From: an uncultured Candidatus Berkelbacteria bacterium | GTDB lineage: Bacteria; Patescibacteriota; UBA1384; UBA12157 | DNA length: 64,000 nucleotides | Direction of reading: 5' to 3' | Assembly (NCBI GenBank): GCA_903877885.1 | Contig: CAIRFN010000002.1 | Span: forward strand, 1,734 to 65,733 | Shown here: piece by piece, positions 4,287-53,200 of the stretch | Layout of the letters: every line of letters begins with the position of its first letter | How positions within the stretch are numbered: the first letter of the stretch is position 1 | Program-made: the position numbers and the translations under genes | The notes under the pieces: generated by a model | What the model saw: only the letters and a program-made list of their open reading frames with translations | Databases searched by the model: none | Told to the model about the DNA's origin: nothing

Positions 4287-4331
4287 AATTAAACCAGAAG
4301 GTAACTTCCAGGGTTGTATCGGGAGGGAAAA

Positions 4332-5441
4332 ATGAAAAAAAGAGTTTTGATTGTCTCATTTAAAATTGGGTTAGGTCATTATAAGGCGGCCGAAGCGATT
4401 GAAGAAAAATTGCGCCAAAATCACCCGGAATTGGATATTAAGCATGTCGATATGGTTGACTATATTAGTTTGTTGGGCGGCAGTATTTATCAAAAAGGCT
4501 ATCTGGCAATTACTGACAAGGCGCCGGAACTATGGCGCATGCTTTATCATCAAACGCCAGCTTATTCCGCCAAATTACGTTTGATTTTTGATTTAGCCAA
4601 CACCGCCAAATTTCGCAAATTAATTTTTGCCCATGAACCAGATTTAGTTATTTGTACTCATTTTATTCCCGCCAGTCTCTTGTCACACTGGCGCGAAACC
4701 TTAAATTTAGAAACCAAATTAGCTTTTATTCTGACTGATTTTGAAAGTCATCCGCATTTAATTATTCCTGGACTCGATTTATACTCGGTGGCGGCCGATT
4801 CGGTTAAACATGAATTAGTTAAAAATAAGATTGATTCAAGTAAAATCGCAGTTACTGGTATTCCAGTCAAAGCCAATTTTACTAAAACCTATGAAAAGTC
4901 CAAAATTCGCCAAAAATTGGGTTTAAAAGATAAATTTACTGTTCTTCTGATGAGCGGCGGTTTTGGTGTTGGTGAAATCGAAGATATTTTCTCGCGTCTA
5001 CAAGAATCCACAGATGATTTACAGATTGTGGCTGTGGCTGGTTATAATAAGGAATTGGAAAAAGATTGGCAGAAAGTGGCTAAAAAATCACCAAAAGTTA
5101 ATAAGATTTTTGGTTTTACCGATCAAGTGGCTGAACTAATGGCCTCTGCCGACGTTATTGTCTCTAAAGCCGGTGGTTTGACTGTTTCCGAGTCGCTTTG
5201 TATTGGGACGCCGCTTGTGATTTTTAAGCCGACTCCCGGCCAGGAGGAGGCTAATACTAGATATCTAGTCAGCCGCGCGGCTGCGTATCATGCCGAAACG
5301 GTCAAAGGAATTTTAAATATCATTAATCGAGTTTTTTTGGGTCAAGAAGATATTATGGCAATGAAGAAAAATATTGCTAAAATCGCTAAACCTCATGCGG
5401 CCGAAATCGTGGCTCTAAAAGTGGTTGATTTAATTAAATAA
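4332..5441 (+). CDS. GT28-family glycosyltransferase (MGDG synthase / UgtP-like diacylglycerol glycosyltransferase)
   Basis: N-terminus has the VLIVSFKIGLGHYKAAEAI pattern of MGDG-synthase-like proteins. C-terminal half has a MurG-like G-loop (VSKAGGLTVSE). RBS GGGAGGG. Confidence 0.65.
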   Translation: MKKRVLIVSFKIGLGHYKAAEAIEEKLRQNHPELDIKHVDMVDYISLLGGSIYQKGYLAITDKAPELWRMLYHQTPAYSAKLRLIFDLANTAKFRKLIFAHEPDLVICTHFIPASLLSHWRETLNLETKLAFILTDFESHPHLIIPGLDLYSVAADSVKHELVKNKIDSSKIAVTGIPVKANFTKTYEKSKIRQKLGLKDKFTVLLMSGGFGVGEIEDIFSRLQESTDDLQIVAVAGYNKELEKDWQKVAKKSPKVNKIFGFTDQVAELMASADVIVSKAGGLTVSESLCIGTPLVIFKPTPGQEEANTRYLVSRAAAYHAETVKGILNIINRVFLGQEDIMAMKKNIAKIAKPHAAEIVALKVVDLIK

Positions 5442-7134: not shown

Positions 7135-8590
<1,456 letters not shown>

Positions 8591-14571: not shown

Positions 14572-16755
14572 ATGTCATTTCTAAAATCAACACGTCAAAA
14601 AGTTTTATTATCAATCATCATCGGCGTTTTAATTATCGCGCTGGGAATTTTTGGTTATCTTTGGCAAACCGGAAAATTAAAATTTTCTGCTAGTACTATA
14701 GCAACGCCGAAGGTTTTTAACTATGTTATGTCAACAACCGATACAAGTAAATACGATGCCGCAAGCACTCTTGTCACTGACAGTGGCTACATTAAACTTA
14801 ATGTTACTGCTAGTCCTTCTAGCGTTAAAACCATCTCAACAACTGTTAGCGGAATACAAAATCAATCAGAGTTGAGTGAATGGATTCTAGTCACATCTGG
14901 TGCAACGACTCCGCTTAAAACCGCACCGGTGGCTAATGTAATTAGTACTTTGAATCGGACACCAAATAGTTTCGACAACAACAACAATATTACGGCTTCA
15001 AAATCTTTTACTCATCCGATCGTTCTAACTTTAACGCCACAAACCTTACCTGTTGGAGCAGTAATCAGTAATATTAACGTTTATGCATTGAAAAATAACA
15101 GCGGTCTTAGTGGAAATGATTTAAATATGATATTATCGAGCGATTACAATGTAGCCCGAAATTTTACTGTGTCTCCTCAAGGCTGCGCTGGTACAAATAC
15201 TGTCTGTAATATCGACTTTAACAAAAACTACAAAGCTGGAGCACAATCTCCTTGGACAGCGGCCGATTTGAACACGCTTTATTTGTCAATCATACCGACA
15301 ACCGTGTCTAGTTCTTCTATCAGTATGATTCAAGTAACTATCACTTATACCAATCCATTTAGTGCGGTTACTACCGGTCTTATTGCCCCGACTAATGCTA
15401 ACTTTAGCGATTCTGGTAATACTTTAACTGCTTGGCAAACAGTTAAAGTCGATAAGCTTTTAATTCCGATGTTGCCTTCATCGGCATCAGCTTCTGCTCA
15501 AATCCAGTGGTTTGCTGGTACCCAAGCTAATATCGCGGCTGATCTGGCTTCGGTCAAATTGACGAATAGTTTATTAACTACCTGTAAGAGTAGTTGTTCA
15601 TCAGCGATTACTATTGGCTCCACAGCCGCTCTGAATCTAACCAATAGTCCGGTGGGGCAGTATGGTGCCTATGCTATTAAATTCTATGTTTCCAGCTTAT
15701 TGCCAACCTCTTTGCAAGTTGGTCAAAATCTAACTGTATCCGCCGCCGTTCCAGCGCCAGTAGCAATTTGTCCGGTAAATTTAACAGTTAATCCTACTAG
15801 TCTAGGGGTTAATGAGAGTATTACTATTACTGGTACTAATTTTAAAACCAGTGGTGTCGCTTATAGTGTTTATATGATGAAATCAGATGGATCGTCGACT
15901 ACTAAAATTAACTTATCATCAGTTATAGTTTCCTCAACAATGAGTATGATCGCGGTTATACCACCTAATGTGAGTATCGGCAATTATTATATTTATGTTC
16001 AAGATCCAACTTGTTCTGCTACTAAATCAAGTAATGTCCTTAATATTCATGATAGTTGTAATCTTGATGCCACTTTCCAAAGTAGCCTGAATGCAGCGCT
16101 TCAACCAGTCATTGCTAGTGTTTTACCGGCTGGTATCAGTTTAGGTGATTTAAATCTTGGAACTGCTTTGAGAGATAGCCAGACTAAAATGTCAAATACG
16201 CCAGTTGTTTTAACTCCCGCCGAAATCGTAAAGCTTAAAAATAAAACTTTTACATCTGATGACGTTAAGAATGTTAGTCTTCGTTTTTTTAATACCGGCA
16301 CTCAACCGATGCAAGTCTATTTTGCCGGACAAGTAGAGAAACAATTCCTTGATATTGGCCAAAATATGAATTCAAAACAATGGTATAAACTATACCAATA
16401 TTATAATGATTATACGACTTACAAATCTTTTTATGATAGTGTTAATAAGCAAAGAATTCTTACCACACCAGCCTATACGGTTACGGCTAATCTTGGAGGT
16501 CTAAGCGGCGCCACTATTCAAGCAGTCAATAATTCCTATACACTTACTGTCAATCCGAATCTTTCCGCAACTTATGCTTGTCATGCTATTACAGGGTCGA
16601 TCAATTGGTCAATTCGTGGTAATTTGAATACTAAAGCCCAGGCAGTTAATATTTCTTATGGTGGTGTTACTTATAAAGCCTTTAGTATTAGCTATGATGC
16701 GGGGGTTTCCAAATCAAATCCAACGATTAATTTGCAATATATTTCTCCGCTATAA
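14572..16755 (+). CDS. large Ser/Thr/Asn-rich secreted or surface protein with signal anchor and IPT/TIG-like segment
   Basis: 727 aa. N-terminal hydrophobic anchor, low-complexity S/T/N-rich sequence, and ITITGTNF (IPT-like). Confidence 0.65.
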   Translation: MSFLKSTRQKVLLSIIIGVLIIALGIFGYLWQTGKLKFSASTIATPKVFNYVMSTTDTSKYDAASTLVTDSGYIKLNVTASPSSVKTISTTVSGIQNQSELSEWILVTSGATTPLKTAPVANVISTLNRTPNSFDNNNNITASKSFTHPIVLTLTPQTLPVGAVISNINVYALKNNSGLSGNDLNMILSSDYNVARNFTVSPQGCAGTNTVCNIDFNKNYKAGAQSPWTAADLNTLYLSIIPTTVSSSSISMIQVTITYTNPFSAVTTGLIAPTNANFSDSGNTLTAWQTVKVDKLLIPMLPSSASASAQIQWFAGTQANIAADLASVKLTNSLLTTCKSSCSSAITIGSTAALNLTNSPVGQYGAYAIKFYVSSLLPTSLQVGQNLTVSAAVPAPVAICPVNLTVNPTSLGVNESITITGTNFKTSGVAYSVYMMKSDGSSTTKINLSSVIVSSTMSMIAVIPPNVSIGNYYIYVQDPTCSATKSSNVLNIHDSCNLDATFQSSLNAALQPVIASVLPAGISLGDLNLGTALRDSQTKMSNTPVVLTPAEIVKLKNKTFTSDDVKNVSLRFFNTGTQPMQVYFAGQVEKQFLDIGQNMNSKQWYKLYQYYNDYTTYKSFYDSVNKQRILTTPAYTVTANLGGLSGATIQAVNNSYTLTVNPNLSATYACHAITGSINWSIRGNLNTKAQAVNISYGGVTYKAFSISYDAGVSKSNPTINLQYISPL

Positions 16756-17259: not shown

Positions 17260-17330
17260 GATTTAATTATATCAAGATCTTGAAATTTAGCCAAAGATTT
17301 GTTAGAATAATAATATCAATTAATTTTTGT

Positions 17331-17407
17331 GGGCGATTAGCTCAGCTGGTTAGAGCGCGTTCCTGATAAGAACGAGGTCATTGGTTCGAGTCCAATATCG
17401 CCCACCA
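17331..17407 (+). tRNA. tRNA-Ile (anticodon GAT)
   Basis: GGGCGATTAGCTCAGCTGGTTAGAGCGCGTTCCTGATAAGAACGAGGTCATTGGTTCGAGTCCAATATCGCCCACCA. Cloverleaf intact and CCA encoded. Confidence 0.95.
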
Positions 17408-17440
17408 CGAAACTTATTGAAAGTACTAGATACAATTTGT

Positions 17441-17908
17441 ATGACTATAGGTCCACATGCTTTAGCGGGAGCAGCTGCCGCGACAATCACATCAAACTAT
17501 TATCTGGCCTTTATTTTTGGTCTTATTTCGCATTTTATTTTGGATATGTTGCCGCATTTGGAGCCAAAATCGTTGATGACGAAAGAGAAAGATGGGACAA
17601 AAAAATGGTCCATTTGGCTTTATGTTTTTGTAATTGTGGAAATAAGTTTAACCGTTTTTGTTTTTTATTTTCTTCGGCATCGACCGGATTTCAATCTTTT
17701 GCTAGTTGGCGCTTTTGGTGGGCTAATGCCAGACATGATCGTTAACAATCCCTTTTTGCAGTTTTTGCGAAATAAACCAGTTATCAAGCATTTATTTTGG
17801 TTTCATGATAAAATACATATTGACCTACCAGATAAATATTGGCCAGTTAGTTTGATTGTCGAAACATTATTAATAGGAGGGTTATTATGGAACTTTTTTG
17901 GAAAATAA
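17441..17908 (+). CDS. hypothetical His-rich membrane protein (YdjM-like?)
   Basis: Multi-TM protein with HFILDMLPH and FWFHDKIH motifs. The ORF-track start at 17381 overlaps the tRNA, so the first ATG downstream (17441) is used. Confidence 0.45.
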   Translation: MTIGPHALAGAAAATITSNYYLAFIFGLISHFILDMLPHLEPKSLMTKEKDGTKKWSIWLYVFVIVEISLTVFVFYFLRHRPDFNLLLVGAFGGLMPDMIVNNPFLQFLRNKPVIKHLFWFHDKIHIDLPDKYWPVSLIVETLLIGGLLWNFFGK

Positions 17909-18090
17909 TCGTTTTAATTGCCTCGATTTTTGCTTGTATCGGTGTGATTAAATATCGGTTACAAATGGTTAATATTTTCGGTAAAGCCTATTATGCCGAA
18001 AAATATTTAGGCCCTGGCGGTAGTTATACTATGTGGATTTTAATTGGCATTTTAATGGTTTTTATGGCCGCCACTTGGTTGTTTAAATAG
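17887..18090 (+). CDS. small membrane protein
   Basis: 67 aa with two TM helices. Overlaps the upstream gene end. Confidence 0.4.
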   Translation: MELFWKIIVLIASIFACIGVIKYRLQMVNIFGKAYYAEKYLGPGGSYTMWILIGILMVFMAATWLFK

Positions 18091-18099
18091 GAAGAATAT

Positions 18100-18172
18100 G
18101 GGCCCGTAGCTCAGTTGGTAGAGCAACTCCTTTGCAAGGAGAAGGTCGGAGGTTCGAATCCTCTCGGGTCCA
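18100..18172 (+). tRNA. tRNA-Ala (anticodon TGC)
   Basis: GGGCCCGTAGCTCAGTTGGTAGAGCAACTCCTTTGCAAGGAGAAGGTCGGAGGTTCGAATCCTCTCGGGTCCA. No encoded CCA. Confidence 0.95.
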
Positions 18173-18194
18173 AAGCTTTTAAATTTTTTTAAAT

Positions 18195-19250
18195 ATGAAT
18201 CAAGATCCAGCTAATTTATTCAAAAATCCCCTAAAGTTTAATGCTAAAAACATTATCATTTTAGTTTTGCTTTTGGTCGGCTTATACTTTTTACTGCCAA
18301 AATTAGTTGGTCTAGAACAAGCACTCAAACTCTTGCGCCATATCAACAAATTTTATTTACTTCTGGGAATAGTTGCTGAGATCATGAGTTTTATCGGTGC
18401 GGCTTGGCTATTGGGAATTATCTTTACTCAACTTGGTCATAAACTACCGTTTTTTACTCGGTTTAAATTGGGTTCGATTGCCGCTTTCACTATTCATTTT
18501 GTGCCTTTGGGTGCTGCCGGCGAGGCCGCTTTTGATTATTATTTTTTGCGCAAACAAAGAGTTGATTCTGGTTCGATTATTCTGATGTGGATTTTGCGCT
18601 GGATTTTTACCTATGCCGGTTTTTTCCTGGTTTTCCTTTTTGGCCTCATGTTAGTGCCAACTTATCCAGATTTAACCTTTTCGCCAAAATTTATTTCGCC
18701 GATTTTGCTGATCGCTATTTTGGGCGCGGTTTTTTACTTGGTTTATATTTATCGGCATAAAGATAAATTCTGGCAAGTTTGGAGTAAGCTTTTTAGTTTT
18801 GCTAATCGAATTATCAAAAGGTTTAAAAAAGAACCATTTGCCGAAGACAAGAAAAGAGAAGTTTTTGATGATATCTATGAAGGTATTGGCTTATTTGGCC
18901 GCAAAAAGAGAAGTTCAATTTTGGCAATTTTGGCCGGTATGCTTTATTGGCTTGGTGATATTACTTGTTTCTATTTTGTCTTTTTGTCGTTTGGCTTCCA
19001 TATTGGTTGGGGTATGTTGATTTTTAGTTATTGTATTTCCACAGTTTTGGGCATTATTTCGGCTGTACCCGGCGGTATGGGCGTAACCGAAGGCTCGATG
19101 GCTTTGATTTTAACCGGTATGGGCGTACCAGGCGCATTGGCTTTAACTGCCACTTTAGTTTTCCGTTTGTTCTCCTATTGGGTCTGGATTCCAGTCGGAT
19201 TTTTTTCCTATTTATCACTTAGAAATCCTAAATTAGAAAAGAATCAATGA
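18195..19250 (+). CDS. UPF0104 / lysylphosphatidylglycerol-synthase-TM-like (flippase-like) membrane protein
   Basis: 351 aa, about 8 TM helices. The K..L..INKFYLLLGIVAEIMSFIGAAW pattern is typical of UPF0104. TGA stop overlaps the next ATG (ATGA). Confidence 0.65.
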   Translation: MNQDPANLFKNPLKFNAKNIIILVLLLVGLYFLLPKLVGLEQALKLLRHINKFYLLLGIVAEIMSFIGAAWLLGIIFTQLGHKLPFFTRFKLGSIAAFTIHFVPLGAAGEAAFDYYFLRKQRVDSGSIILMWILRWIFTYAGFFLVFLFGLMLVPTYPDLTFSPKFISPILLIAILGAVFYLVYIYRHKDKFWQVWSKLFSFANRIIKRFKKEPFAEDKKREVFDDIYEGIGLFGRKKRSSILAILAGMLYWLGDITCFYFVFLSFGFHIGWGMLIFSYCISTVLGIISAVPGGMGVTEGSMALILTGMGVPGALALTATLVFRLFSYWVWIPVGFFSYLSLRNPKLEKNQ

Positions 19251-20416
19251 AAATATTGATTGCCACTGAAAGTTTTTACCCGAATATTTCTGGGGTGGCG
19301 GTTTTTAGTTATAATTTAGCCAAAATGTTGGCCCAAAATGGCCACGAACTTTATGTGATTGCGCCGAGTACAAATGGCGATTTTTATTTTGAGAAAATCG
19401 ATCAAATTAAAATATATCGGTTAAAATCGCGTCAAAATCCTTGGCGCAAAGGCCATTTTATTTCCAAAGCGCCTTTCAAGAAAGTCGCTCAAATTATCAA
19501 TGAAGTAAAACCGGATGTGATTCATCTTCAAGATCCAGCGGCGATTTCTTTAGCTACGTTACTGGTTGCCAGACGTCAGAAAATCCCCGTCGTGGTGACT
19601 AATCATTTTTCTTTGGATTATGTTGTCAGTTACCTAAAATGGCTTAAACCGATTCATTTTGTGATTAGATTTATTTTAAATACTTATTTGGGTTGGTTTT
19701 ATAATCGGGCACAGGTTTTAACTTGTCCTTCCAAACAAATCGCTGATTATTTTACTGACCGTCATTTAAAATCTAAACCAATTGTGATTTCCAATGGCGT
19801 TGATTTAGGTCGTTTTATGCCAGAATATGGTGATCGGGAATCGGTTTTAAATCAATGGAAAATTCCTGCCAATAAATCAATTTTGCTTTATGTTGGCCGA
19901 CTCGATGTAGATAAAAACATTGAGATTTTACTTCGAGCTTTGCCAAAAGTTTTAGCCAAAAAACAAATTCAATTATTATTAGTTGGAGAAGGTAAAATTA
20001 TGAATCAAATGAAAGATCTGGTTAAAGAATTAAAAATCGAACCAAATGTAACTTTCACTGGTCAAATTGATAATCAAAATAATAATTTACCAAAAATTTA
20101 TCAAGTTGCAGCAATTTTCATCAATCCTTGTCCGATTGAAACTCAAGGTATTGCGGTTTTGGAGGCGATGGCTTCGGGATTGCCAATTGTCGCCGCCAAC
20201 GGCGGGGCTTTGCCGGAACTGATTAAAGATAGCGAAAATGGTTATCTTTTTAAATCTGATGATAGTGCCGATTTAGCGCAAAAAATTATCCAAATTTTAT
20301 CTGACAGCAAATTAGCGCAAAAAATGGGTCAAAAAAGTTTGGAAATTGTGGAAGCTCACAAGGTTGAAAATACTTTTAAGGAATTTGAAAAAATATACGA
20401 AGGATTGAAAAAATGA
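19247..20416 (+). CDS. GT4-family glycosyltransferase
   Basis: C-terminal E..G..VLEAMASGLPIV motif and a GT-B fold. ATGA overlap with the next gene. Confidence 0.85.
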   Translation: MKILIATESFYPNISGVAVFSYNLAKMLAQNGHELYVIAPSTNGDFYFEKIDQIKIYRLKSRQNPWRKGHFISKAPFKKVAQIINEVKPDVIHLQDPAAISLATLLVARRQKIPVVVTNHFSLDYVVSYLKWLKPIHFVIRFILNTYLGWFYNRAQVLTCPSKQIADYFTDRHLKSKPIVISNGVDLGRFMPEYGDRESVLNQWKIPANKSILLYVGRLDVDKNIEILLRALPKVLAKKQIQLLLVGEGKIMNQMKDLVKELKIEPNVTFTGQIDNQNNNLPKIYQVAAIFINPCPIETQGIAVLEAMASGLPIVAANGGALPELIKDSENGYLFKSDDSADLAQKIIQILSDSKLAQKMGQKSLEIVEAHKVENTFKEFEKIYEGLKK

Positions 20417-21342
20417 AGAAAATAAAGAAAAGATATATTTTAACTATCGCTATTATTCTCGGTGTGATTGGATTTTTTTTCTATGGTTGGTATTATCAAA
20501 ATCTGCCGGAATTTGCCATGCCGGCGATCAGCCAAATCTCATCACCTTCGGCCACGGATCGAATTTTGGTTTTAGCGCCACACCCTGACGATGAAACTTT
20601 AGGTGCCGGCGGTTATATTCACCAAGCAATTCAAAATCAGGCGACAGTCAAAGTGGTAATCGTGACTAACGGCGACGGCGAACGTTTTTCCGCCTCTAAA
20701 AGTTTTCGAAAAGTTATGGTTAAACCCAAAGATTATATTCAGACAGGGAATTCGCGTCAACAAGAATCAACTAATGCGCTAAAAACACTTGGATTAAATG
20801 AAGAAAATATTATTTTCTTGGGTTTTCCTGATGGCGGACTGAAATCCTTATTAACAAAAAACTGGACTAATCCCTATAAATCAAACTACACCAAAGTTTC
20901 GGTTTCACCCTATACCAATTCATATTTTCCAGACGTGAGTTACACCGGTCAAAATCTGACTGCCAATTTAACCAGTATTATCAACGATTTTAAACCGACT
21001 ATAATTTTAACGACTTCTTCAATTGACCTTCATCCAGATCATGCCGCTCTAGCCCAATTTGCCAAAAATGCGACAGCTGGAAAAAATATTAAAATTAATT
21101 ATTATTTAATCCATTATCGTCATTTTCCTTATCCAAAAGGTTTGGTTCTGGCTCGCAATTTGACGCCACCATTGCGATTGTTTTTACAAAATCAGACTTG
21201 GCAACAATTTGAGCTTGATAATCAAACAGAACAGTTAAAATTAGCCGCGATTAATCAATATCAAAGCCAACTTAAAGAGCCATTTTTAAAAAGTCTAATG
21301 CAAGGTTTTGTCAAAAAGAATGAATTATTTGTTAGTATTTAA
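20413..21342 (+). CDS. PIG-L / LmbE-family N-acetylglucosaminyl deacetylase with N-terminal TM anchor
   Basis: ILVLAPHPDDETLGAGGYI is the AHPDDE motif. 309 aa with an N-terminal TM helix. Confidence 0.8.
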   Translation: MKKIKKRYILTIAIILGVIGFFFYGWYYQNLPEFAMPAISQISSPSATDRILVLAPHPDDETLGAGGYIHQAIQNQATVKVVIVTNGDGERFSASKSFRKVMVKPKDYIQTGNSRQQESTNALKTLGLNEENIIFLGFPDGGLKSLLTKNWTNPYKSNYTKVSVSPYTNSYFPDVSYTGQNLTANLTSIINDFKPTIILTTSSIDLHPDHAALAQFAKNATAGKNIKINYYLIHYRHFPYPKGLVLARNLTPPLRLFLQNQTWQQFELDNQTEQLKLAAINQYQSQLKEPFLKSLMQGFVKKNELFVSI

Positions 21343-21515: not shown

Positions 21516-22103
21516 ATGAATGATCAAGGCACTAATTATGTGAAGCAACAATTAAATTCTGGCGTCAGCCCTAAAGCGCTCCGTCAAGCGATGGTAAATG
21601 GCGGTTGGAAACCAACTGACGTTGATATTTTAATTAACAATGTTCTCCAAGAAAAAACTCGGAATTTGTCGCCAGCTGTGGCCGCGGATATGGCTCGCGA
21701 TGACGAAATCGCGGCGGCAAGCGCCACAAAACCTGGTTCGAAAGTTGGTTTAATTATTTCGATTATAATTATATTTTTGGTTGTCGTTGGTACGGCTAGC
21801 TATTTCTATTTCAAACCAAATATAAATTGGTCAATTTACATGGGAATTTCCAGTCCAACACCAAGTCCTAGTTCTATTATCAACACTATTCAACCTACTC
21901 TAACCCAAACCGTGACCGATAGTGATAATGACGGTTTGTCGGATACTAATGAATTGATTTGGGGCACGAATCCAAATAATCCAGATACTGATGGTGACGG
22001 CCATCCAGACGGTTCAGAAGTCTGTGCTGGTTATAATCCGCTCGGAGCAGGGAAGTTTACCGCTGCCCAAATGACTTTAACCAAACCTTTGAACTGTCCG
22101 TAG
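21516..22103 (+). CDS. membrane-anchored protein with calcium-binding DxDxDG (thrombospondin type-3-like) repeats
   Basis: TM helix near residue 80. C-terminal DSDNDGLSDTNE / DTDGDGHPDG repeats. Confidence 0.55.
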   Translation: MNDQGTNYVKQQLNSGVSPKALRQAMVNGGWKPTDVDILINNVLQEKTRNLSPAVAADMARDDEIAAASATKPGSKVGLIISIIIIFLVVVGTASYFYFKPNINWSIYMGISSPTPSPSSIINTIQPTLTQTVTDSDNDGLSDTNELIWGTNPNNPDTDGDGHPDGSEVCAGYNPLGAGKFTAAQMTLTKPLNCP

Positions 22104-26835: not shown

Positions 26836-27770
26836 TTTATTAGACCAAAAAAGGAAAGGCTCAAGGATGGGTACTAACCTTAATTTAGAGGGGGTAGACG
26901 ACTAAAATAAAGTAGCAATTTTGCTTGCGATTTTGTTTAGTCCGCTACAAAGGTTACAGCGGACTTTTAAAATTCTAGGTTGTAAGATTCTAAATAAACA
27001 TTTGTTTAGAGAATATAACTTAGAAATTTAACCTTCTAAGATACTTTAACAACTCAAAGATTGATTTCTCTTCTTTTGAAAGTTAGGGAGAGTGGTTAAA
27101 AGATATGTGTCTTTTAGCTTGTCAATCGAGTTATTTTTATTATTTTAGTATCTTGGTTGTTGTCCAACTAAAATAAAATTCGTTAAGAGCATATGGAGGA
27201 TGCCTTGGCATAGAAGACCGATGAAGGACGTAGTAGGCGTGCGATACGCCTCGGGGAGCTGCCAAACAAGCTTTGATCCGAGGATTTCCGAATGGGGAAA
27301 CCCATCTAGCGAAGAGCTAGATATCCAACATCCATCCCTTCAGCACGAATGAGCCCACCTGATCCATTAAATTTATAGGGATCAAGACAATGGGTTTTTA
27401 ATCATTTCGCGCTGGGGGACGGATGTTGGACGGGCACCTGGGGAACTGAAACATCTTAGTACCCAGAGGAAAAGAAAACAATACTCAACTCAATTGAGAG
27501 ATTTAAATCAGCCTTCGGGTTGATTTAAATCTGTGATTCCCTTAGTAGCGGCGAGCGAAACGGGATCAGCCTGGTGATTTCAAGTAAATATTTATTAGCC
27601 AAATGAACCTGGAAAGGGCGACCAAAGAGGGTAATAGTCCCGTAGGCGAAAATTATATTTGAACTGTTATCACTTCTCACTTTCCTTCGGGATTGTGGGA
27701 AAGTACCACTAGACACGTGAAAACTAGTGGGAAGACGGGGGGATCGTCCCCCAAGGCTAAATATCTTCTA

Positions 27771-27818
<48 letters not shown>

Positions 27819-29147
27819 AATTGGGGAGTGAAATAGTACCTGAAACCATATGCTTACAAGAAGTCGGAGCCCGCAAGGGTGACGGCGTGCCTTTTGTAGA
27901 ATGAACCTACGAGTTAGCTGGCAGTGGCTTGGTTAAGTTCCGATAGGGACGGAGCCGTAGCGAAAGCGAGTGTTAATAGCGCGAATTTGTCATTGTCACT
28001 AAACCCGAAACCGGGTGATCTATCCATGAGCAGGTTGAGTCTCTGTGAAAACAGAGAGGAGGACCGAACACTATAGCGTTGCAAAACTATGTGATGACTT
28101 GTGGATAGCGCTAAAATAGCAATCGAACCCGGAAATAGCTGGTTCTCCCCGAAATATATTTAGGTATAGCGGTTTATTACATCTGAAGCGGTAGAGCTCT
28201 GGATGGTCTTGGCGGCGCAAGCCGTCGGACCAATCAAACTCCAAATTCTTCAGGTCAAAGGATAAATCAGTCAGACTGTAGGGGCTAAGCTCTATGGTCG
28301 AGAGGAAAACAGTCCAGACCGCCATCTAAGGTCCCAAAGTGAAACTTAAGTGGAAAAGGATGTGATCATCCTTAGACAACTAGGAGGTTGGCTTAGAAGC
28401 AGCCATCCTTTAAAGAAAGCGTAACAGCTCACTAGTCAAGGATAATTGCGCCGAAAATTTAACGGGGCTCAAAGTTTCCACCGAAGATGCGGATTCAAAA
28501 TTTATTTTGAGTGGTAGGGGAGCGTTCTTATTGGAGTGAAGGTGAACCGTGAGGTTTGCTGGACCGATAAGAAGTGCGAATGTAGGTATGAGTAACGAAT
28601 TAGGCAGGCGAGAAACCTGCCCACCAAATGTCTGAGGTTTCCCCCGCAACGATAATCGACGGGGGGTTAGTCGGGCCTAAGCTTTATGCGATGGACAGCC
28701 GGTTGATATTCCGGCACTGTTATAAGATTATATAGCGATGACGCCGAACGAATGTTTCTGTGAGCGCATGGTTGCGAGCAGAAGTTGAAGTTTGGACAAG
28801 AAAAGTCGCTATCCACTACTTATAGCACCCGTACCGCAAACCGACTCAGGTAGACGGGTGGAGAACACCAAGGTGATCGAGCTAACTTTCCCAAAGGAAC
28901 TCGGCAAAAAAACGGGCGTAACTTAGGGATATGCCCTGCCTACTCGAAAGAGAGGCTGCAACCAACGAATTTCAGGCGACTGTTTACCAAAAACTTAGGT
29001 CTCTGCGAACCCATTTTGGGGATGTATAGGGGCTGATGCCTGCCCAGTGCTAGTAGGTTACGGGGAGAGGTGATTCCGCTAACGCGGATGAGCTTTGAAC
29101 TTAAGCCCTAGTGAACGGCAGCGGTAACTATAACCGTTCTATGGTAG

Positions 29148-29903
<756 letters not shown>

Positions 29904-30398
29904 TGGCATAACGGTCTGAAAACTGTCTCTGGGAAGGGCTCGGTGAAATTACAATGCCGGTAAAGATGCCGGTTACGCGCAGCAAGACGGAAAGACCCCG
30001 TGAAGCTTTACTATAGCTTGATATTGGGTCAAAATTTTAATTGTATAGTGTAGGTGGAAGCCTTCGGGCGACAATGTAACACCACCCTGTTGAAATTTTG
30101 ATTCTAACCCTCGAAAGAAGGGACAGTGTCAGGTGGGTAGTTTAACTGGGGCGGTTGACTCCTAAATTGTAACGGAGTCGTTCAAAGGTTGGCTTGTCCC
30201 GGATGGAAATCGGGATGAAAGTGCAAACGCATAAGCCAGCTTAACTGCAAGGGATACACCCCGCGCAGATGCGAAAGCAGGAGTTAGTGATCCTCTGGCA
30301 CAGTATGATGTGGCCAGAGCTCAACGGATAAAAGCTACTCCGGGGATAACAGGCTGATCGCGCCCAATAGTCCACATAGACGGCGCGGTTTGGCACCT

Positions 30399-31249
30399 TA
30401 ACACATTGGGGTGCTGTGGGAGTAATCCCATACCAAAAAATCGGCTTATAACGGTGAACCCCTATTGTTTGTTCGGGTTTTATTCATTAGAATAGAATAA
30501 AATAAACAAGGGCGATACCGTGGGAAGTCTAACGTCAATTCAGAAAGAAGTTTTGATTGGAAGTTTGTTGGGTGACGGCGCATTGCGCAAGCAAGGCACT
30601 AGAACTAACGCGCTTCTTGAAGTTAATCATTCTTTTCAATATAAAGAATATGTTGATTGGAAATGGCAACATTTCAAGGAGTATATAAAAACTCCACCAA
30701 AGCCTCGACATGGTAATGGCAATCGTATTGCTTATCGCTTTACGACTCAAAGTTTACCGTTTTTTACAGAATATTATGATAAATATTATTCAAATGGTAA
30801 AAAATTTATTGCGCCAGATATTACATTGACCCCTCTGATTTTGTCAGTTTGGTTTATGGATGATGGTTCAAAGAGTCGTAACACTTATTATCTGAATACC
30901 CAACAATTTTCGATCGAAGATCAGAATTGTTTAATGAGTATTCTTGATAGAGACTTGAAAATTAAATCAAGTTTGAACCGCGATAAAATATACTGGAGAA
31001 TTAGAATAAGAACGGAAAGTGCCGACAGATTTAAAAAAATTGTTGCACCTTACCTGTTACCATGTTTCCGTTATAAAATTGACAATGACCCCGTAACGAC
31101 TGATTCGAAAGATGAGATTTAGCTACTTGTAATTTAGCTAGATAACACGCCGCACCCTACATAAAAAAGTAAAGGATATGGCTCACGCCTAAAGTCCAAC
31201 TGTAGGGAAAAGATATAGTCTACGCCATTAGTAATAATGGATAAAAGTA
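30399..31249 (+). mobile_element. group I-like intron 2 in 23S (E. coli position about 2500)
   Basis: About 850-nt insertion between GGCACCT and CGATGTCGG. Carries a LAGLIDADG ORF. Exact boundaries are uncertain by a few nt. Confidence 0.75.
30520..31122 (+). CDS. LAGLIDADG homing endonuclease (two-motif type)
   Basis: GTG start. Motifs LIGSLLGDGAL and WFMDDGS. 200 aa. Located inside intron 2. Confidence 0.85.
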   Translation: MGSLTSIQKEVLIGSLLGDGALRKQGTRTNALLEVNHSFQYKEYVDWKWQHFKEYIKTPPKPRHGNGNRIAYRFTTQSLPFFTEYYDKYYSNGKKFIAPDITLTPLILSVWFMDDGSKSRNTYYLNTQQFSIEDQNCLMSILDRDLKIKSSLNRDKIYWRIRIRTESADRFKKIVAPYLLPCFRYKIDNDPVTTDSKDEI

Positions 31250-31783
31250 CGATGTCGGCTCACCCTATCCTGGGGGTGTAGTAGCTCCCAAGGGTTTGGC
31301 TGTTCGCCAATTAAAAGGGTACGCGAGCTGGGTTCAGAACGTCGTAAGACAGTTCGGTCCTAATCTGCTGTGCGCGTTGAAACTTGAGAGGACTTCGATT
31401 TAGTACGAGAGGACCAATCGGAACGAATCTCTGGTGTACCAGTTGTTCTACCAAGAGCATTGCTGGGTAGCTATATTCGGCCGTGATAACCGCTGAAAGC
31501 ATATAAGCGGGAAGCACACCTCAAGATCAGGTTTCGTTTAGATCCCCAGTAGACCACTGGGTTGATAGGCTCTAGGTGTAAGATGGGTAACCATTTCAGC
31601 CAAGGAGTACTAATTGATCAAGAATTTTATTCAGTTGGGCAACTACCAAGATATCTAAAATAATAATAATTCAATAATTCATAATTCAGAATGAAATAAT
31701 TAATTTTTTTATAAATCTAAATTTTATAATTCTGAATTCTGCATTAAATAATTAGTAATAAATTGTGAATTTTGTCCTGGTGT

Positions 31784-31893
31784 CAGTAGCGATCGGGCCA
31801 CACCTCTTCCCATTCCGAACAGAGTAGTTAAGCCGATCAGCCCCGATGATACTCGGTCCGCAAGGGTCCTGGAAAGTAGGACGACGCTGGGAC
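31784..31893 (+). rRNA. rrf: 5S ribosomal RNA
   Basis: GTCCTGGTGTCAGTAGCGATCGGGCCACACCTCTTCCCATTCCGAACAGAG...GGGTCCTGGAAAGTAGGACGACGCTGGGAC. An AT-rich spacer separates it from 23S. Confidence 0.9.
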
Positions 31894-35812: not shown

Positions 35813-37570
35813 ATGTGTGGAATTATTGGAATCTTATCCCAAAAAACTGATGCGCCAGACCAGGTCGTGGAGGCTTTAAAAAAGCTGGAATATCGCGGCT
35901 ATGATTCTTGGGGCGTGGCAATTGGTGGCAAATATATAAAATTGCAAAAAAATATTGGTAAAATTAGCCAAGCGGTTTTAGTTAATGACACGACTGGTAA
36001 TTTGGCTATCGGTCATACTCGTTGGGCTACTCACGGTGGCGTGACCCAAATTAACGCTCATCCACACACCGATTGTTTGGAAAAAATTGCCGTGGTCCAC
36101 AATGGCATTATTGAAAATTTTCAGGAGCTAAAAAAGGATTTGGAAAATTTCGGTCATAAATTTTTATCGCAAACCGATACCGAAGTTATTCCGCATTTAA
36201 TTGAAGAAGAATTAAGAACCGAAGAGGATTTTAAAACTGCGCTTGTAAAATCCGTTGCCAAATTGAAAGGCAGTTACGCTTTCGTTCTAATCCGCGCTAA
36301 TTCCAATGAACTTTGGGCCGTGGCCAATGGTTGCCCATTGGTCGTTGGTCAATCAGAAAATCAGCTGATAATTTCCAGCGATATTTTGGCATGCAAAACC
36401 AAAAAAGTTATCTATATTCCTGAAGAAACTTTGATTCATATCGCTGACGAAATTGAATTTTCAAATTTGGAAACTGGCAAACCCAAAAACTTAAAATGGG
36501 AAGAAAATAAGGTTGAAAATCACGAAATTACGCCAGGCAAATTCAAACATTTTTTAGAAAAAGAAATTTACGAGCAACCGGAAATTATTAAAAAAATCAG
36601 CCAGATGGATGTGCGCGAAGTGGAAACCAATGCCGCGCTGATTCGACATTCCTTTGGTACTTTTTTTGTGGCATGTGGCACTTCCTATCATGCCGCTTTA
36701 GCGGGCGAATATTTATTTTCTCAAATCGCTAAAATGCATATTAATTTAATTTCGGCTGGAGAATTTGCTAACTTTCGCCATTTTATTACCGATAAGACTT
36801 TGCTTTTTCCGCTATCGCAATCCGGCGAAACCGCTGATGTTTTGGAAGCGGCTAAAGTAGCGGTTAAATGTCGTGCCAAAATTTTATCATTAGTTAATAA
36901 TCCCAATTCCACTTTGGCGAGATTATCGGACGTCGTAATGGTGACGCCCGCCGGCCCAGAAATCGCTGTTTTGTCGACCAAAGCATATACATCACAAATT
37001 GCTATTTTGTATTTGCTAGCAAACGCGGTGGCCGGCGATTTTGCTAAAGCCCAGTGTGATTTGGAAAATTTAAGTGAAATGCTAAAAACGATTTTTGAAA
37101 ATGAATCGGTTGAAAAGCTTAAAAAATTAGCTAAAAAAATTAAAAATGCGACCAGTTTATTTACGATTGGTCGCGGTTTAAATTATGCAGTTGCGCTGGA
37201 AGCCGCCTTAAAAATCAAAGAAGTCTCCTATATTCATGCCGAAGGTTTTGCTGGTGCGGATTTAAAACATGGGCCAATTGCGCTAATCGAAAAAGACGTG
37301 CCGTGTATTGTTTTAGTTTCCAACGATGAAAATAAAGAAGAAATTTTATCAAACGCGATGGAAGTTCGCGCCCGCGGTGGTTTCATTATCGGTGTCGCGC
37401 CCGAAAACAACGAGATTTTTGATTATCATATTAAAGTGCCGGACTTTGCTGAACTATCGTCCATCATCAATATTGTGCCGATGCAACTACTAAGTTATTA
37501 TTTGGCCATTGCGCGCGAGTGTGATCCGGATAAACCGCGAAACCTCGCCAAAAGTGTAACAGTGAAGTAA
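35813..37570 (+). CDS. glmS: glutamine--fructose-6-phosphate aminotransferase
   Basis: N-terminal MCGIIG Ntn nucleophile and HTRWATHG. Two SIS domains. 585 aa. Confidence 0.95.
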   Translation: MCGIIGILSQKTDAPDQVVEALKKLEYRGYDSWGVAIGGKYIKLQKNIGKISQAVLVNDTTGNLAIGHTRWATHGGVTQINAHPHTDCLEKIAVVHNGIIENFQELKKDLENFGHKFLSQTDTEVIPHLIEEELRTEEDFKTALVKSVAKLKGSYAFVLIRANSNELWAVANGCPLVVGQSENQLIISSDILACKTKKVIYIPEETLIHIADEIEFSNLETGKPKNLKWEENKVENHEITPGKFKHFLEKEIYEQPEIIKKISQMDVREVETNAALIRHSFGTFFVACGTSYHAALAGEYLFSQIAKMHINLISAGEFANFRHFITDKTLLFPLSQSGETADVLEAAKVAVKCRAKILSLVNNPNSTLARLSDVVMVTPAGPEIAVLSTKAYTSQIAILYLLANAVAGDFAKAQCDLENLSEMLKTIFENESVEKLKKLAKKIKNATSLFTIGRGLNYAVALEAALKIKEVSYIHAEGFAGADLKHGPIALIEKDVPCIVLVSNDENKEEILSNAMEVRARGGFIIGVAPENNEIFDYHIKVPDFAELSSIINIVPMQLLSYYLAIARECDPDKPRNLAKSVTVK

Positions 37571-50205: not shown

Positions 50206-53200
50206 ATGATTTTAAAGAAACTTAAACTCGCTAATCGAAAATTAATGGTAATTTTAGCAATTGCCAGTTTAATTTTGCAATTTAGTATCATGCCAATAGT
50301 TAAGGCTGATGATGAAATTGCAATTTCCGAACCAGTCGCATCTGTCGAAACAAAAGATGTGGTCAAATCAGAGATTGCCCCCATTGTCGCAAAATCAGAA
50401 CCAACTCCAGAAATGACACCGACAGATGAACCAGCTATCGAGCCGGAAGCGACACCAACAATCGAACCAACGCCGACAGCAATTTCAACTCCAATTGTTG
50501 AAGTTTTGACAACACCGGCACCAACTCCGACAAGCGAGAATATTGCGCCAGAAAATATTGAAACTCCGGAATCTATCTGGCAAGTTGATGGCGCTAAAGC
50601 CACCACAACTCATCATGTCGAACTAAATACTCTTTACACTGCGCCGCAAAACGATCAAGTCACGGTCGAATTTACCAAATTGCCGGAAAAGCCGGGGCAT
50701 TTGTCGATTGAGGAAATTAAACTTTCCGACAGTCAAATGGCGACTTTAAATACTTCTTACAACAAGGCTTACGATATCACTTCCGATATGACTGACGGCA
50801 GTTTTGAATATACTTTAACGCTACCAAAAACCAATCAAGCCGCTGGCATTTCCTATTTGGAAAAATCAGTTTCCGAATTTAATCATAATATCGACAAAGA
50901 AGATATTAAACCAATCGATTCCGATAATATCAAATTGAAATCCAATACCATCGAAGCTAAAGATATTAATCATTTTACGATTTTTGTGACTATCGCAGAT
51001 TGGAATTTTGATGATTCGACAGCATTGGCAGATAGTAATAGTTTAAATCAAAATCTTGCGAAAAATGTATCAGTTGTTGGCTCAAGCTTTAGTAACTATA
51101 TTACTGGCGTCTCTGGAAAAGCAATTAATGCAAATTCTTGGAATAGTGGTGGAGACAAATATTGGCAAGCAGAAGTTAATACTACTGGATATGAAAATTT
51201 AAAATTAAGTTCTTTTCAAAAAAGTTCACCGACTGGGCCTAAAGATTTTAAAGTGCAGTATAAAATTGGATCTGATTCTTGGATTGATATTCCTGGTGGA
51301 GTCATAACCGTTTCTCCAAGTAATTTTACTTCTGGAACGATCAACGAACTTGTATTACCGATTGCTTGTAACAATCAATCAAATTTATTTATTCGTTGGC
51401 TTAAAAATTCAGAGGTTTCGGCTAACGATTTGACTATTGGAAGTACTGGCACAAATGCAATCGATAATATTAATATTCAAGGGTCAACAATAGTTCTTCC
51501 GACTCTGACCTCCTCCAACATTACGGCTGATGGAAATGTTATTGGTAATTTGGCAGATGGCGCGGTTTTAACCACCAGAAACGGTTCAAGTTTTCATCCT
51601 TTGGATGTTGCCAATGTGATAACCGCGGACGGTGATTTACCGGCGCAAAATTATGCTTTTAATTTGCAAGCCGATGAAGCGCAAAAGACTGAACTAAAAA
51701 ATTACTTTGCGGCGAAAGATGGTTGGAATTCAGATATGATTAATCAAATCAATGCTGAAATCGAGGGCACCGCTCCATTCTTTTATTTAAAATCCGCTGG
51801 CGCCGCTGGTTATTCTTTGATTGATGGCTTTAAAAAAGCGATGGGTCTGGGCGATAATCCTTTAGTGATTGACGATAATTACCCGACGGGAACTTATATT
51901 TACACTGGCGAAATTTCCGGTCAAACTAAGACAATTTCTTTGACTGTTAATCGAGCTGACATAACGCCGCCAGTCATCACTATTGATCCTTATGATACAA
52001 ATCCGACTAATCAAGATATCATTGTTACAGCTTCGACTAATGAAGGGACTTTAAATGCTATTTCTTACACTTTTACCGAAAACGGTAGTTTTGATTTTGT
52101 TGCCACTGACGCCGCTGGCAATGTTTCAACTCAAACCGTGACAATTACTAATATCGACAAAACCGCGCCAGTGATCGATTCAGTTACTTCTGCGCCAGAT
52201 ACAACTGGGGATGCTTCGACAATTACAGTTAATGCTCATGATAATATTGCAATTTTTTCGGTCAAAATTAATATTAACGGTACAGGCTATGTTTCCATGA
52301 CTGGCACTGGTCCTTATACTTATGAATATTTGCTTCCTAATAACGATATATCAAAAATAAATTACAGTGTGAGCCTAACTGATACGGTTGGAAACATCAC
52401 AACTAACAGCTATGGAATTAATCCGATTGACGATGAATCGCCAGTGATTACTTTAATTGGCGACAATGAAGTGACGGTTGAACGCACAAATTCTTATATT
52501 GACGCTGGTGCGACCGCACTAGATAATATCGATGGCGATATTACAACGGCAATCATTCCGACTAATAATGTTAATACTGATCTTATTGGTGATTATACTG
52601 TGACTTATAATGTTTCTGATAATAATTTAAATCCAGCTTTATATATTAGTCGTACAGTTCATGTTATTGATACGGTCGCACCAGTCATTACCATCGACCA
52701 ATATAATACCAACCTTACCAATCAAGATATCATTGTCACGGCTTCGACTAATGAAGGAACGTTAAACCAGAATTTATATACATTTACCGAAAACGGTAGT
52801 TTTGATTTTGTTGCCACTGACGCCGCTGGCAATGTTTCAACTCAAACCGTGACAATTACTAATATCGACAAAACCGCGCCAGTTATAACTCTAAATGGCG
52901 ATTCCAATATCGATATTATGCGAAATTCAACTTACACTGATGCTGGCGCAACGGCCTTAGATAATACGGATGGCAATATCACCGGCAGTATACAAATTGT
53001 TGGCCAAGTTGATACTTCGATTCCTGGAACATATTTGATTACTTACAATGTTTCAGATTCGGCTGGTAATGCAGCGACTGAAGTAACTCGAACAGTTAAT
53101 GTGATTTTGGAAAATAATCAGGTTGCGCCGGATTTGACTGGCAATGCCACTTTGAACGCAACTCAAAATCAACTGGTCGTGACCGATTCAGAAACGGCCG

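Follow-up and report, generated by a model that had tools for sequence, protein, structure and literature searches.

A flippase-like, glycosyltransferase and anchored deacetylase gene cassette in a Candidatus Berkelbacteria genome as a candidate module for glucosamine-bearing membrane lipids

Membrane composition is an open question in the Candidate Phyla Radiation (CPR), or Patescibacteria. These organisms are believed to acquire their lipids from the cells of others (PMC7242380), and the ways in which they tailor them are poorly understood. What, then, is the task of three consecutive genes for a flippase-like membrane protein, a glycosyltransferase (GT) and a membrane-anchored deacetylase in an uncultured Candidatus Berkelbacteria bacterium? 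The genes, referred to here as A (F), B (S) and C (D), lie in a 64-kb stretch of DNA (GenBank assembly GCA_903877885.1, contig CAIRFN010000002.1, positions 1,734 to 65,733), which is called the window. It holds 56 open reading frames (ORFs) of at least 120 amino acids (aa), ~33 of which were scanned against profiles. The answer favoured here, with a probability of roughly 0.55, is that the cassette is a flippase-synthase-deacetylase (F-S-D) module through which a membrane lipid bearing glucosamine (GlcN) is built at the outside of the cytoplasmic membrane.

The three genes are co-oriented (Table 1) and joined by start/stop overlaps of 4 nt, of the ATGA type, with the sequence aatcaATGAaaat at the A/B junction (19247-19250) and aaaaATGAagaaa at the B/C junction (20413-20416). 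Translational coupling of the three proteins is therefore suggested. A first-pass annotation, made from the DNA letters alone, had described three overlapping genes of these families, and the ORF list, Pfam and the sequence confirm its coordinates, its family assignments and both junctions. Homologues number from hundreds to thousands for each gene and further genomes carry a conserved cassette, so that A, B and C are real genes rather than chance ORFs. The GC content of the cassette (0.37) is like that of its surroundings, and close homologues of A and B carry Patescibacteria or Berkelbacteria labels.

Gene A matches PF03706 (LPG_synthase_TM, the transmembrane/flippase region of MprF) over profile positions 3-302 of 302 (E = 5e-36; 125 bits, cut-off 33.4) and the "flippase-like domain" model TIGR00374 over its full length (118 bits, cut-off 43.2). 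Its hydropathy profile contains 7-8 hydrophobic segments, and residues 186-240 form a long loop rich in lysine and arginine. The model of bifunctional MprF (NF033480) is matched at 76 bits (cut-off 600) in its flippase part only, the C-terminal aminoacyl-phosphatidylglycerol synthase domain being absent. The score to the GpgF flippase model NF053789 (27.5 bits, cut-off 320) indicates homology at the superfamily level only. A phmmer search of the PDB with the gene A sequence gave no match; a family profile matches MprF proteins of known structure in their N-terminal flippase domain. An AlphaFold2 model was obtained with a predicted local distance difference test (pLDDT) value of 81, and the Foldseek search of the PDB with this model returned six MprF cryo-EM structures (E = 7e-6 to 2e-4, TM-score 0.56-0.62, 317-354 columns) and no other match with E <0.2. 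Homologues of gene A form a tight, CPR-specific clade of ~85 sequences sharing 47-77% identity, followed by a gap to 21-29%. These matches place the protein in the MprF-flippase-domain, or PplT, family, and lipid translocation is the activity predicted from its homology to MprF.

Gene B carries the two-domain GT-B signature of family GT4, with matches to PF00534 (4e-40) and PF13439 (3e-33), and no transmembrane (TM) segment was seen in a hydropathy scan. Its best PDB sequence matches are to BshA (2jjm/3mbo at 4e-27, 5d00, 6n1x), followed by PimA (5e-18). Among NCBIfam models, BshA (TIGR03999) ranks first with 145.7 bits, ahead of stp2 (131.7), stp3 (130.5), the alpha-monoglucosyl-diacylglycerol synthase Mgs (128.7) and GpgS (NF053787; 123.7), the synthase of N-acetylglucosaminyl-phosphatidylglycerol (GlcNAc-PG). 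Since all of these scores are far below the cut-offs (273.7 for BshA and 480 for GpgS; MshA, TIGR03449, reaches 93.1 against 462.5), gene B belongs to no characterised equivalog. Two further members of the family gave a similar mix of models, with GlcNAc-PG synthase ranking first for one. The nearest relatives are thus a mixture of UDP-GlcNAc-dependent, glycerolipid-acceptor and exopolysaccharide (EPS)-type GT4 enzymes. The first-pass annotation had held that placement in a polysaccharide clade would count against a lipid role. Gene B falls neither in GT26 nor in another polysaccharide-specific family, and its best models are BshA, alpha-glucosyl-diacylglycerol synthase and GlcNAc-PG synthase.

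The active site of the enzyme is intact. The EX7E motif begins at E298, and its second glutamate opens the EAMASGLP string that had been noticed earlier (E306-P313). Across 120 homologues, R218, K223, E298, E306, A307, A309 and P313 are each at least 95% conserved. Another feature of the family is a cationic-aromatic segment in the N-terminal (acceptor) domain. Over the 31 aligned residues (55-85) of the same 120 members, its net charge averages +6.5 (standard deviation 1.8) and is at least +4 in 94%, with R58, N64, R67 and aromatic residues conserved. The isoelectric point is 9.87 for the N-terminal domain and 5.97 for the C-terminal domain, and the family median is 9.4. The segment is proposed as a putative membrane-interface patch, which we take to resemble those of PimA, alMGS and other glycerolipid GTs.

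Gene C encodes a member of the PIG-L/LmbE family (PF02585, 6.6e-29; 101.5 bits, gathering score 28.2). Its best NCBIfam models are BshB1 (TIGR04001; 47.9 bits, cut-off 182.5) and BshB2, and MshB (TIGR03445) scores 33.3 against a cut-off of 224.35. In a Foldseek search with the AlphaFold2 model (pLDDT 93), the 41 best-ranked PDB matches are all LmbE-family deacetylases (E = 1.3e-9 to 5.7e-7), led by MshB, LnmX, diacetylchitobiose deacetylase, Dbv21/Orf2* (teicoplanin/A40926 deacetylases) and BshB. Sequence and predicted fold thus agree for gene C as they do for gene A, which supports the reading preferred here. In a 24-sequence alignment spanning 35-59% identity, H57, D59, D60, E61, R115, E118, D205, D209 and H210 never vary, and conservation of H207 is at least 90%. 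Aligned with MshB (gene C 46-136, MshB 2-87), H57, D59 and D60 fall on His13, Asp15 and Asp16, and the catalytic and zinc-binding roles of these residues are presumably those described in published work on MshB. The "AHPDDE" motif of the first-pass annotation is present, although the actual string (A55-P56-H57-P58-D59-D60-E61) reads APHPDDE. Loss of the catalytic histidine and aspartates, which that annotation would have counted against its proposal, did not occur: every catalytic and zinc residue is kept within an LmbE fold.

On which side of the membrane does this enzyme work? The predicted N-terminal anchor is evident as a hydrophobic stretch after a basic leader (Table 1). Among 117 homologues, 91 have one TM segment before the catalytic motif, and in these the 15 residues ahead of the segment carry a net charge of +3.07, as compared with +0.03 after it. 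Such a positive-inside bias argues for an N-in/C-out topology. Two metagenomic proteins (P0025 and P0027; 519 aa, 45-46% identical to gene C) consist of an N-terminal GT2 domain, exactly one TM segment and a PIG-L domain. Since a nucleotide-sugar GT must be cytoplasmic, the PIG-L domain of these fusions should be outside. In other phyla, most homologues are ~470-480 aa long and comprise the anchor, the PIG-L domain and an extra C-terminal domain. Taken together, the charge bias, the GT2 fusion and the additional domain beyond the anchor point to an extracytoplasmic catalytic domain for gene C. Every characterised LmbE-family enzyme that we know of works within the cytoplasm or at the cytoplasmic side of the endoplasmic reticulum (ER).

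The anchored PIG-L subfamily is large, and its homologues number at least 1,237 (E ≤ 1e-5). The "Pig-L" protein CD630_23150 of Clostridioides difficile may be another member. Its knockout has virulence, biofilm formation and oxidative stress phenotypes, and the protein, with its predicted N-terminal TM helix, was read as a glycosylphosphatidylinositol (GPI)-anchor enzyme (PMC12613277).

The cassette recurs elsewhere, as a check of its conservation proposed in the first-pass annotation revealed. The F-S-D order is kept in six other Patescibacteria contigs, one of which (L097) has an extra CE4 gene. In the other five (L008, L092, L093, L095 and L101), identities to the window proteins are 52-57% for A, 53-58% for B and 48-52% for C. 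Most of these contigs retain the 4-nt overlaps, and their flanking genes differ. With L097 included, protein identities range from 47 to 58%. All loci reached through a GT4 homologue (L096-L102; 43-55% identity) have a TM-anchored PIG-L gene immediately downstream. Overall, the GT4-PIG-L adjacency is present in 12 of 12 related loci from at least two phyla with unrelated flanks. One of these loci, L096, comes from a Syntrophomonas metagenome-assembled genome, and the pair therefore crosses phylum boundaries; in this locus and the similar L100, GT4 and PIG-L overlap by 14 nt. The homologue lists of A, B and C suggest at least nine further co-located pairs. A metagenome scan with gene C alone yielded only four distant loci, which have no bearing on the conservation of the cassette.

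What changes beside the pair is the membrane protein. Six loci have an MprF-like gene, and in four others (L096, L098, L099 and L100) it is replaced by a DedA/VTT gene, of which that in L098 best matches the undecaprenyl-phosphate transporter UptA (49.6 bits, cut-off 250). Members of both families have been linked to the translocation of lipids. This alternation of two kinds of translocator candidate beside the same GT4-PIG-L pair argues for a lipid-flipping step in the pathway, and it is the strongest comparative argument for predicting lipid translocation.

Several other genes were observed at these loci. In L097 and L098, a TM-anchored CE4 deacetylase with best matches to the N-terminal domain of PgaB/IcaB lies directly upstream of GT4, so that two unrelated external deacetylases are encoded side by side. 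Immediately upstream of the cassette in L097 is a gene for an 854-aa protein with intein-splicing and LAGLIDADG signatures. In L092, L093, L095 and L101, an AI-2E_transport gene (PF01594) directly precedes the cassette on the same strand, and a divergent CHAP-domain gene also precedes it; the AI-2E_transport neighbour is absent from the window.

Two characterised systems are the closest precedents. The hexSDF genes of C. difficile encode an MGDG-synthase-type GT, a CE4 deacetylase and an MprF-like flippase, and lipidomics identified HexN-Hex-diradylglycerol (HexN-Hex-DRG) as the product; the authors propose that N-acetylhexosamine (HexNAc) is added to a glycolipid inside, followed by flipping and external deacetylation (PMC10128005). 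In Pseudomonas aeruginosa, gpgSDF encodes a GT4, a COG3233 deacetylase whose predicted location is the cytoplasm and a COG0392 flippase, and lipidomics revealed GlcNAc-PG and then GlcN-PG (PMC12713373). With hexSDF, the window cassette shares a three-gene operon for a GT, a deacetylase predicted to be extracytoplasmic and a stand-alone MprF-like protein. In contrast, HexS is of the MGDG-synthase type and gene B a GT4, HexD is a CE4 polysaccharide deacetylase and gene C a PIG-L/LmbE (CE14) enzyme of unrelated fold, the gene order is S-D-F there and F-S-D here, and the two-component system HexRK controls hexSDF whereas no regulator adjoins the window cassette. The product of HexSDF is an amino-sugar glycolipid that alters surface properties; that of the window cassette is predicted.

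With gpgSDF, the cassette shares a GT4 synthase, a deacetylase and a UPF0104/COG0392 flippase-like protein. The equivalog cut-offs for the synthase and the flippase are missed, however, and GpgD is a COG3233 protein with no TM helices and a predicted cytoplasmic location, whereas gene C is a TM-anchored PIG-L predicted to face outward. In terms of membership of the synthase-deacetylase-flippase (SDF) operons, then, a co-oriented operon of GT, N-deacetylase and stand-alone MprF-like genes is present, and orthology to GpgS and GpgF and a CE4 or COG3233 deacetylase are not; in related loci, CE4 genes occur only as the extra members of L097 and L098. The most economical reading is that the cassette is an SDF-type module in which the unrelated LmbE family fills the deacetylase slot. 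Gene A itself has the N-terminal flippase fold of MprF, as judged from its model, and differs from MprF in lacking the aminoacyl-PG synthase domain. PplT/UPF0104 domains also occur next to, or fused with, other lipid-modifying enzymes, including GT-B and GT-A glycosyltransferases (bioRxiv 10.1101/2022.03.11.483950).

The first-pass annotation had instead likened the cassette to the first steps of GPI-anchor, mycothiol and bacillithiol synthesis. This analogy holds for the chemistry and the superfamilies. In PIG-A/PIG-L, MshA/MshB and BshA/BshB, a retaining GT4 makes an alpha-GlcNAc conjugate that is de-N-acetylated by a zinc enzyme of LmbE fold, and BshA (for B) and MshB/BshB (for C) are the best structural relatives. 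It does not extend to the pathways as such, since hexSDF and gpgSDF are closer precedents and the deacetylase is predicted to be external. In GPI, mycothiol and bacillithiol synthesis, by comparison, deacetylation is cytoplasmic and the module has no flippase gene, and the acceptors of the two thiol pathways are soluble. The cassette was not found to belong to the bacillithiol or mycothiol pathway, nor to the GPI first step with its PIGA domain and cytoplasmic deacetylase. With an external deacetylase, the order of events would be to make, flip and then deacetylate, unlike that in any of the three.

A pathway of three steps can be proposed on this basis. First, the soluble, strongly cationic GT4 would dock on the inner leaflet, use UDP-GlcNAc as donor and attach alpha-GlcNAc to a lipid already in the membrane, most likely diacylglycerol, hexosyl-diacylglycerol or PG. 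The gene for GlmS, the first enzyme towards UDP-GlcNAc, is present in the window, and the presumed sugar donor can therefore be made. Hexosyl-diacylglycerol may be supplied by a UgtP-like enzyme encoded upstream, the second lipid GT (a GT28 MGDG-synthase-like gene) that the first-pass annotation had picked out. Profile matches support that assignment (Table 1), and the best NCBIfam model is diglucosyl-diacylglycerol synthase (NF010135; 215 bits, cut-off 500). A MurG identity for this ORF was ruled out, as MurG scores only 62 bits and the N-terminal domain matches MGDG_synth. Second, the PplT/MprF-flippase-like protein would carry the GlcNAc-lipid to the outer leaflet, as homology to MprF suggests. 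Third, the anchored zinc PIG-L/LmbE domain, whose class and intact active site are evident, would strip the N-acetyl group outside the cell and leave a free amine on a zwitterionic or cationic GlcN-lipid. The cell surface would be expected to become less negative, an effect also put forward for HexN-Hex-DRG in C. difficile and for GlcN-PG in P. aeruginosa. The GlcN-lipid could also act as an anchor for surface polymers.

A number of points weigh against this proposal. The GlcN-lipid product is itself a prediction, and the topology of gene C is predicted from the positive-inside rule and one fusion architecture. The EPS-associated models stp2 and stp3 score about as well for gene B as the lipid- or GlcNAc-dependent ones and no equivalog cut-off is reached, so that its donor and acceptor are predictions. 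Flipping is a presumed activity of stand-alone PplT proteins, HexF and GpgF included (PMC10128005, PMC12713373), and HexF is dispensable for product formation (PMC10128005). Furthermore, the genes up- and downstream of gene C homologues were surveyed at 80 genome loci by Pfam scan, and neither a GT nor a flippase gene is conserved next to the ~480-aa PIG-L forms (37-46% identity, 70-odd genomes, many phyla), the nearest relatives of gene C outside the cassette clade. One CPR homologue of gene C, in L005 and 48% identical, is likewise solitary. The wider PIG-L subfamily is therefore no guide to the substrate of the cassette, and the linkage to GT4 is specific to a subset. Finally, UPF0104 and DedA proteins are both tied to polyprenyl-phosphate carriers (AglD-type archaeal fusions and UptA, respectively), and their presence does not discriminate between a glycerolipid and a polyprenol.

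This last point leads to the chief rival, which is judged unlikely but holds up better than any other. In this reading, a sugar linked to undecaprenyl-(di)phosphate would be the acceptor to which GT4 joins GlcNAc; the MprF-like or DedA protein would flip the product and the external PIG-L deacetylate it, before its transfer to a surface protein, a wall polymer or peptidoglycan, in parallel with the aminoarabinose (Arn) and mycobacterial polyprenyl-P-GalNAc/GalN routes and three-component glycosylation systems. In agreement with such a carrier, Euryarchaeota have proteins in which a UPF0104 domain is joined to a GT-A enzyme of the dolichol-phosphate type (bioRxiv 10.1101/2022.03.11.483950). The GT2 domain of P0025 and P0027 has AglJ, ArnC and the polyprenyl-phospho-GalNAc synthase PpgS among its best matches, and this branch may act on a polyprenyl-phosphate-HexNAc substrate. 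UptA is the best match of the L098 DedA, though far below cut-off, and GT4 enzymes that use undecaprenyl-diphosphate sugars (PglA/H/J, stp2/3, EpsE) are among the matches of gene B. The Arn and PpgS routes also resemble the cassette in that they make an N-acylated amino sugar on a lipid inside the cell and display a free amine outside, by way of a deacylation step and a dedicated flippase. On the other hand, their synthases are of the GT2 type, their deacylases are CE4-type or unknown, and they employ a GT-C transferase; the cassette has none of these. Polyprenyl-monophosphate sugars are products of inverting GT2 enzymes, and gene B is a GT4. An initiating phosphoglycosyl transferase, Wzx/Wzy, a GT-C transferase or a ligase adjoins the cassette in 0 of 13 loci. 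A self-contained module with changing flanks would fit an always-present acceptor such as bulk membrane lipid, and the cationic segment of gene B presumably likens it to glycerolipid GTs.

A GPI- or phosphatidylinositol mannoside-like pathway is improbable. Here the acceptor would be phosphatidylinositol (PI) and GlcNAc-PI would be converted into GlcN-PI, as by PIG-A/PIG-L or in the synthesis of archaeal glucosaminyl-archaetidylinositol. Gene C belongs to a Pfam family that takes its name from GlcNAc-PI de-N-acetylase, the PI mannosyltransferase PimA is among the PDB matches of gene B, and eukaryotic PIG-L is likewise membrane-anchored at its N-terminus (PMC12613277). Yet gene B has no PIGA-domain match among the eight Pfam families reported for it, and the gene C domain is predicted to lie outside while PIG-L is oriented towards the cytoplasm. 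None of the ORFs scanned in the window (~33 of 56) matched a PI synthase, and PI is rare among bacteria outside the Actinobacteria.

It is less probable still that the three genes share no pathway, with the PIG-L acting on peptidoglycan or scavenged chito-oligosaccharides and the GT4 and PplT proteins having unrelated jobs. Diacetylchitobiose deacetylases are among the fold matches of gene C, and most of the wider TM-PIG-L members, along with one close CPR homologue, lack a GT or flippase neighbour, as noted. Such independence is hard to reconcile with a GT4-PIG-L adjacency found at every related locus in at least two phyla, with overlaps of 4 nt in most Patescibacteria copies or 14 nt in L096 and L100. 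Synthesis of a polysaccharide of the poly-N-acetylglucosamine type by the window cassette was ruled out, as there is no GT2 synthase.

Least credible of all is a soluble GlcN conjugate of the bacillithiol or mycothiol type with an incidental membrane protein: although BshA tops the NCBIfam and PDB matches of gene B and BshB1/BshB2 the NCBIfam matches of gene C, the sub-threshold scores of these and of MshA and MshB and the anchored, predictedly external deacetylase effectively exclude it, the GT4-PIG-L pair is consistently linked to a lipid-translocator candidate, and the large ORFs scanned in these 64 kb of the genome include no BshC-like gene, nor did the scanned part of the window yield any other cysteine ligase gene. 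The first-pass view that the cassette makes a translocated GlcN-lipid rather than a soluble thiol therefore stands as far as lipid against thiol is concerned, while the near-equal EPS-type models of gene B leave a polyprenol-linked glycan as the main rival to a GlcN-lipid.

A wider proposal can be made, which is tentative and carries less than even odds. The GT4 and anchored external PIG-L pair might represent a third class of amino-sugar lipid pathway that crosses phyla (Patescibacteria and Syntrophomonas-type Firmicutes), with an LmbE enzyme working outside the cytoplasm, translocators drawn interchangeably from the unrelated PplT/MprF-like and DedA/VTT families and a re-heading of lipids in CPR. 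A literature search found nothing on this gene combination in Patescibacteria or on an extracytoplasmic LmbE enzyme; its coverage was incomplete, and this is weak evidence of novelty. Were the proposal true, surface-charge remodelling of the SDF kind, a strategy relevant to resistance to daptomycin, bacitracin and cationic peptides, would extend beyond pathogens. It would also involve non-orthologous replacement of the deacetylase (CE4 by LmbE) and of the flippase (PplT by DedA), the latter bearing on the debated substrate range of both protein families. The interchange of PplT and DedA would amount to genetic evidence from nature that one glycolipid is flipped by either of them, an LmbE-family enzyme at work outside the cytoplasm would be new, and lipid-scavenging CPR bacteria could place a cationic sugar on lipids taken from their hosts. 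As a compact and conserved unit of three genes, the cassette also offers a testable handle on CPR membrane remodelling and PplT/DedA function, and it draws attention to PIG-L enzymes that appear to work outside the cytoplasm, a large and uncharacterised subfamily.

Table 1. Coordinates of the cassette, its motifs and other features in the window and in related loci.
Feature	Sequence	Position	Strand	Description or basis
Gene A (F)	window	18195-19250	+	stand-alone MprF-flippase-like / PplT / UPF0104 polytopic membrane protein, 351 aa
Gene B (S)	window	19247-20416	+	GT4 (GT-B, retaining) glycosyltransferase, 389 aa
Gene B, cationic-aromatic segment of N-terminal (acceptor) domain, residues 55-85	window	19409-19501	+	charge and conservation in 120 members
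Gene B, EX7E motif (E298...E306, then AMASGLP)	window	20138-20164	+	conservation among 120 homologues
Gene C (D)	window	20413-21342	+	PIG-L/LmbE-family de-N-acetylase, 309 aa, N-terminal signal-anchor
Gene C, single TM anchor (Y8-Y28, after MKKIKKR)	window	20434-20496	+	hydropathy scan; AlphaFold2 helix continuous over 2-28
Gene C, catalytic/zinc motif H57-P-D59-D60-E61	window	20581-20595	+	invariant in 24-sequence alignment
Gene C, second zinc motif H207-P-D209-H210	window	21031-21042	+	D209, H210 invariant; H207 at least 90%
MGDG-synthase/UgtP-like GT28 glycosyltransferase	window	4314-5441	+	PF06925 2.7e-24 and PF04101 (GT28 C-terminal domain)
GlmS	window	35813-37570	+	TIGR01135, 615 bits, cut-off 418
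16S rRNA	window	7135-8587	+	
727-aa protein	window	14572-16755		Ser/Thr/Asn-rich, N-terminal anchor, no Pfam match
Sigma-70-like site	window	17280-17308		TTGAAA-17-TAGAAT with TG
tRNA-Ile	window	17331-17407	+	
tRNA-Ala(TGC)	window	18099-18173	+	ARAGORN and Rfam; 21 nt upstream of gene A
Protein with bacterial TSP3 repeat	window	21516-22103		membrane-anchored
23S rRNA	window	27173-31632	+	
LAGLIDADG homing-endonuclease ORFs (two)	window	29296-29727 and 30520-31122		PF00961, PF03161
5S rRNA	window	31776-31892	+	
1,284-aa ORF	window	50206-54060		no NCBIfam match
DedA/VTT gene	L096	6945-7553	-	adjoins GT4-PIG-L pair
DedA/VTT gene	L098	5975-6583		adjoins GT4-PIG-L pair
DedA/VTT gene	L099	6213-6815		adjoins GT4-PIG-L pair
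DedA/VTT gene	L100	5948-6463	-	adjoins GT4-PIG-L pair
AI-2E_transport gene	L092	1604-2617		PF01594
AI-2E_transport gene	L093	1769-2782		PF01594
AI-2E_transport gene	L095	1693-2703		PF01594
AI-2E_transport gene	L101	1589-2602		PF01594
CE4 deacetylase gene	L097	4183-5004		TM-anchored
CE4 deacetylase gene	L098	3144-4001		TM-anchored
854-aa protein	L097	589-3153		intein-splicing and LAGLIDADG signatures

The setting of the cassette in the window is a dispersed rRNA operon in canonical order (16S, tRNA-Ile, tRNA-Ala, 23S and 5S), the three genes lying between the tRNAs and the 23S gene. Some 18.6 kb of protein-coding genes separate 16S from 23S, including those for a ClpB-like ATPase and the 727-aa protein as well as the cassette itself. 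Just upstream of tRNA-Ile is the sigma-70-like site, and from tRNA-Ile to the start of gene A (17331-18195) there is a tight same-strand array of tRNA-Ile, two small membrane-protein ORFs and tRNA-Ala. The cassette may be co-transcribed with these upstream tRNAs. Directly downstream of it is the gene for the TSP3-repeat protein.

The 23S match is 4,460 nt long, as compared with 2,925 nt for the model, and contains the two LAGLIDADG ORFs; the 23S gene therefore carries at least two insertions. No group I intron was found in it at the Rfam gathering threshold.

The ~480-aa PIG-L forms of the neighbour survey (L009-L087) come from Firmicutes, Chloroflexi, Armatimonadota, Omnitrophota and other phyla. 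Their upstream neighbours include CDF zinc/cation efflux proteins (6 of 74), GNAT acetyltransferases (4 of 74, plus 5 of 71 downstream) and HGSNAT-type transmembrane acetyltransferases (3 of 74), which hints at an external zinc supply or at a cycle of deacetylation and re-acetylation.

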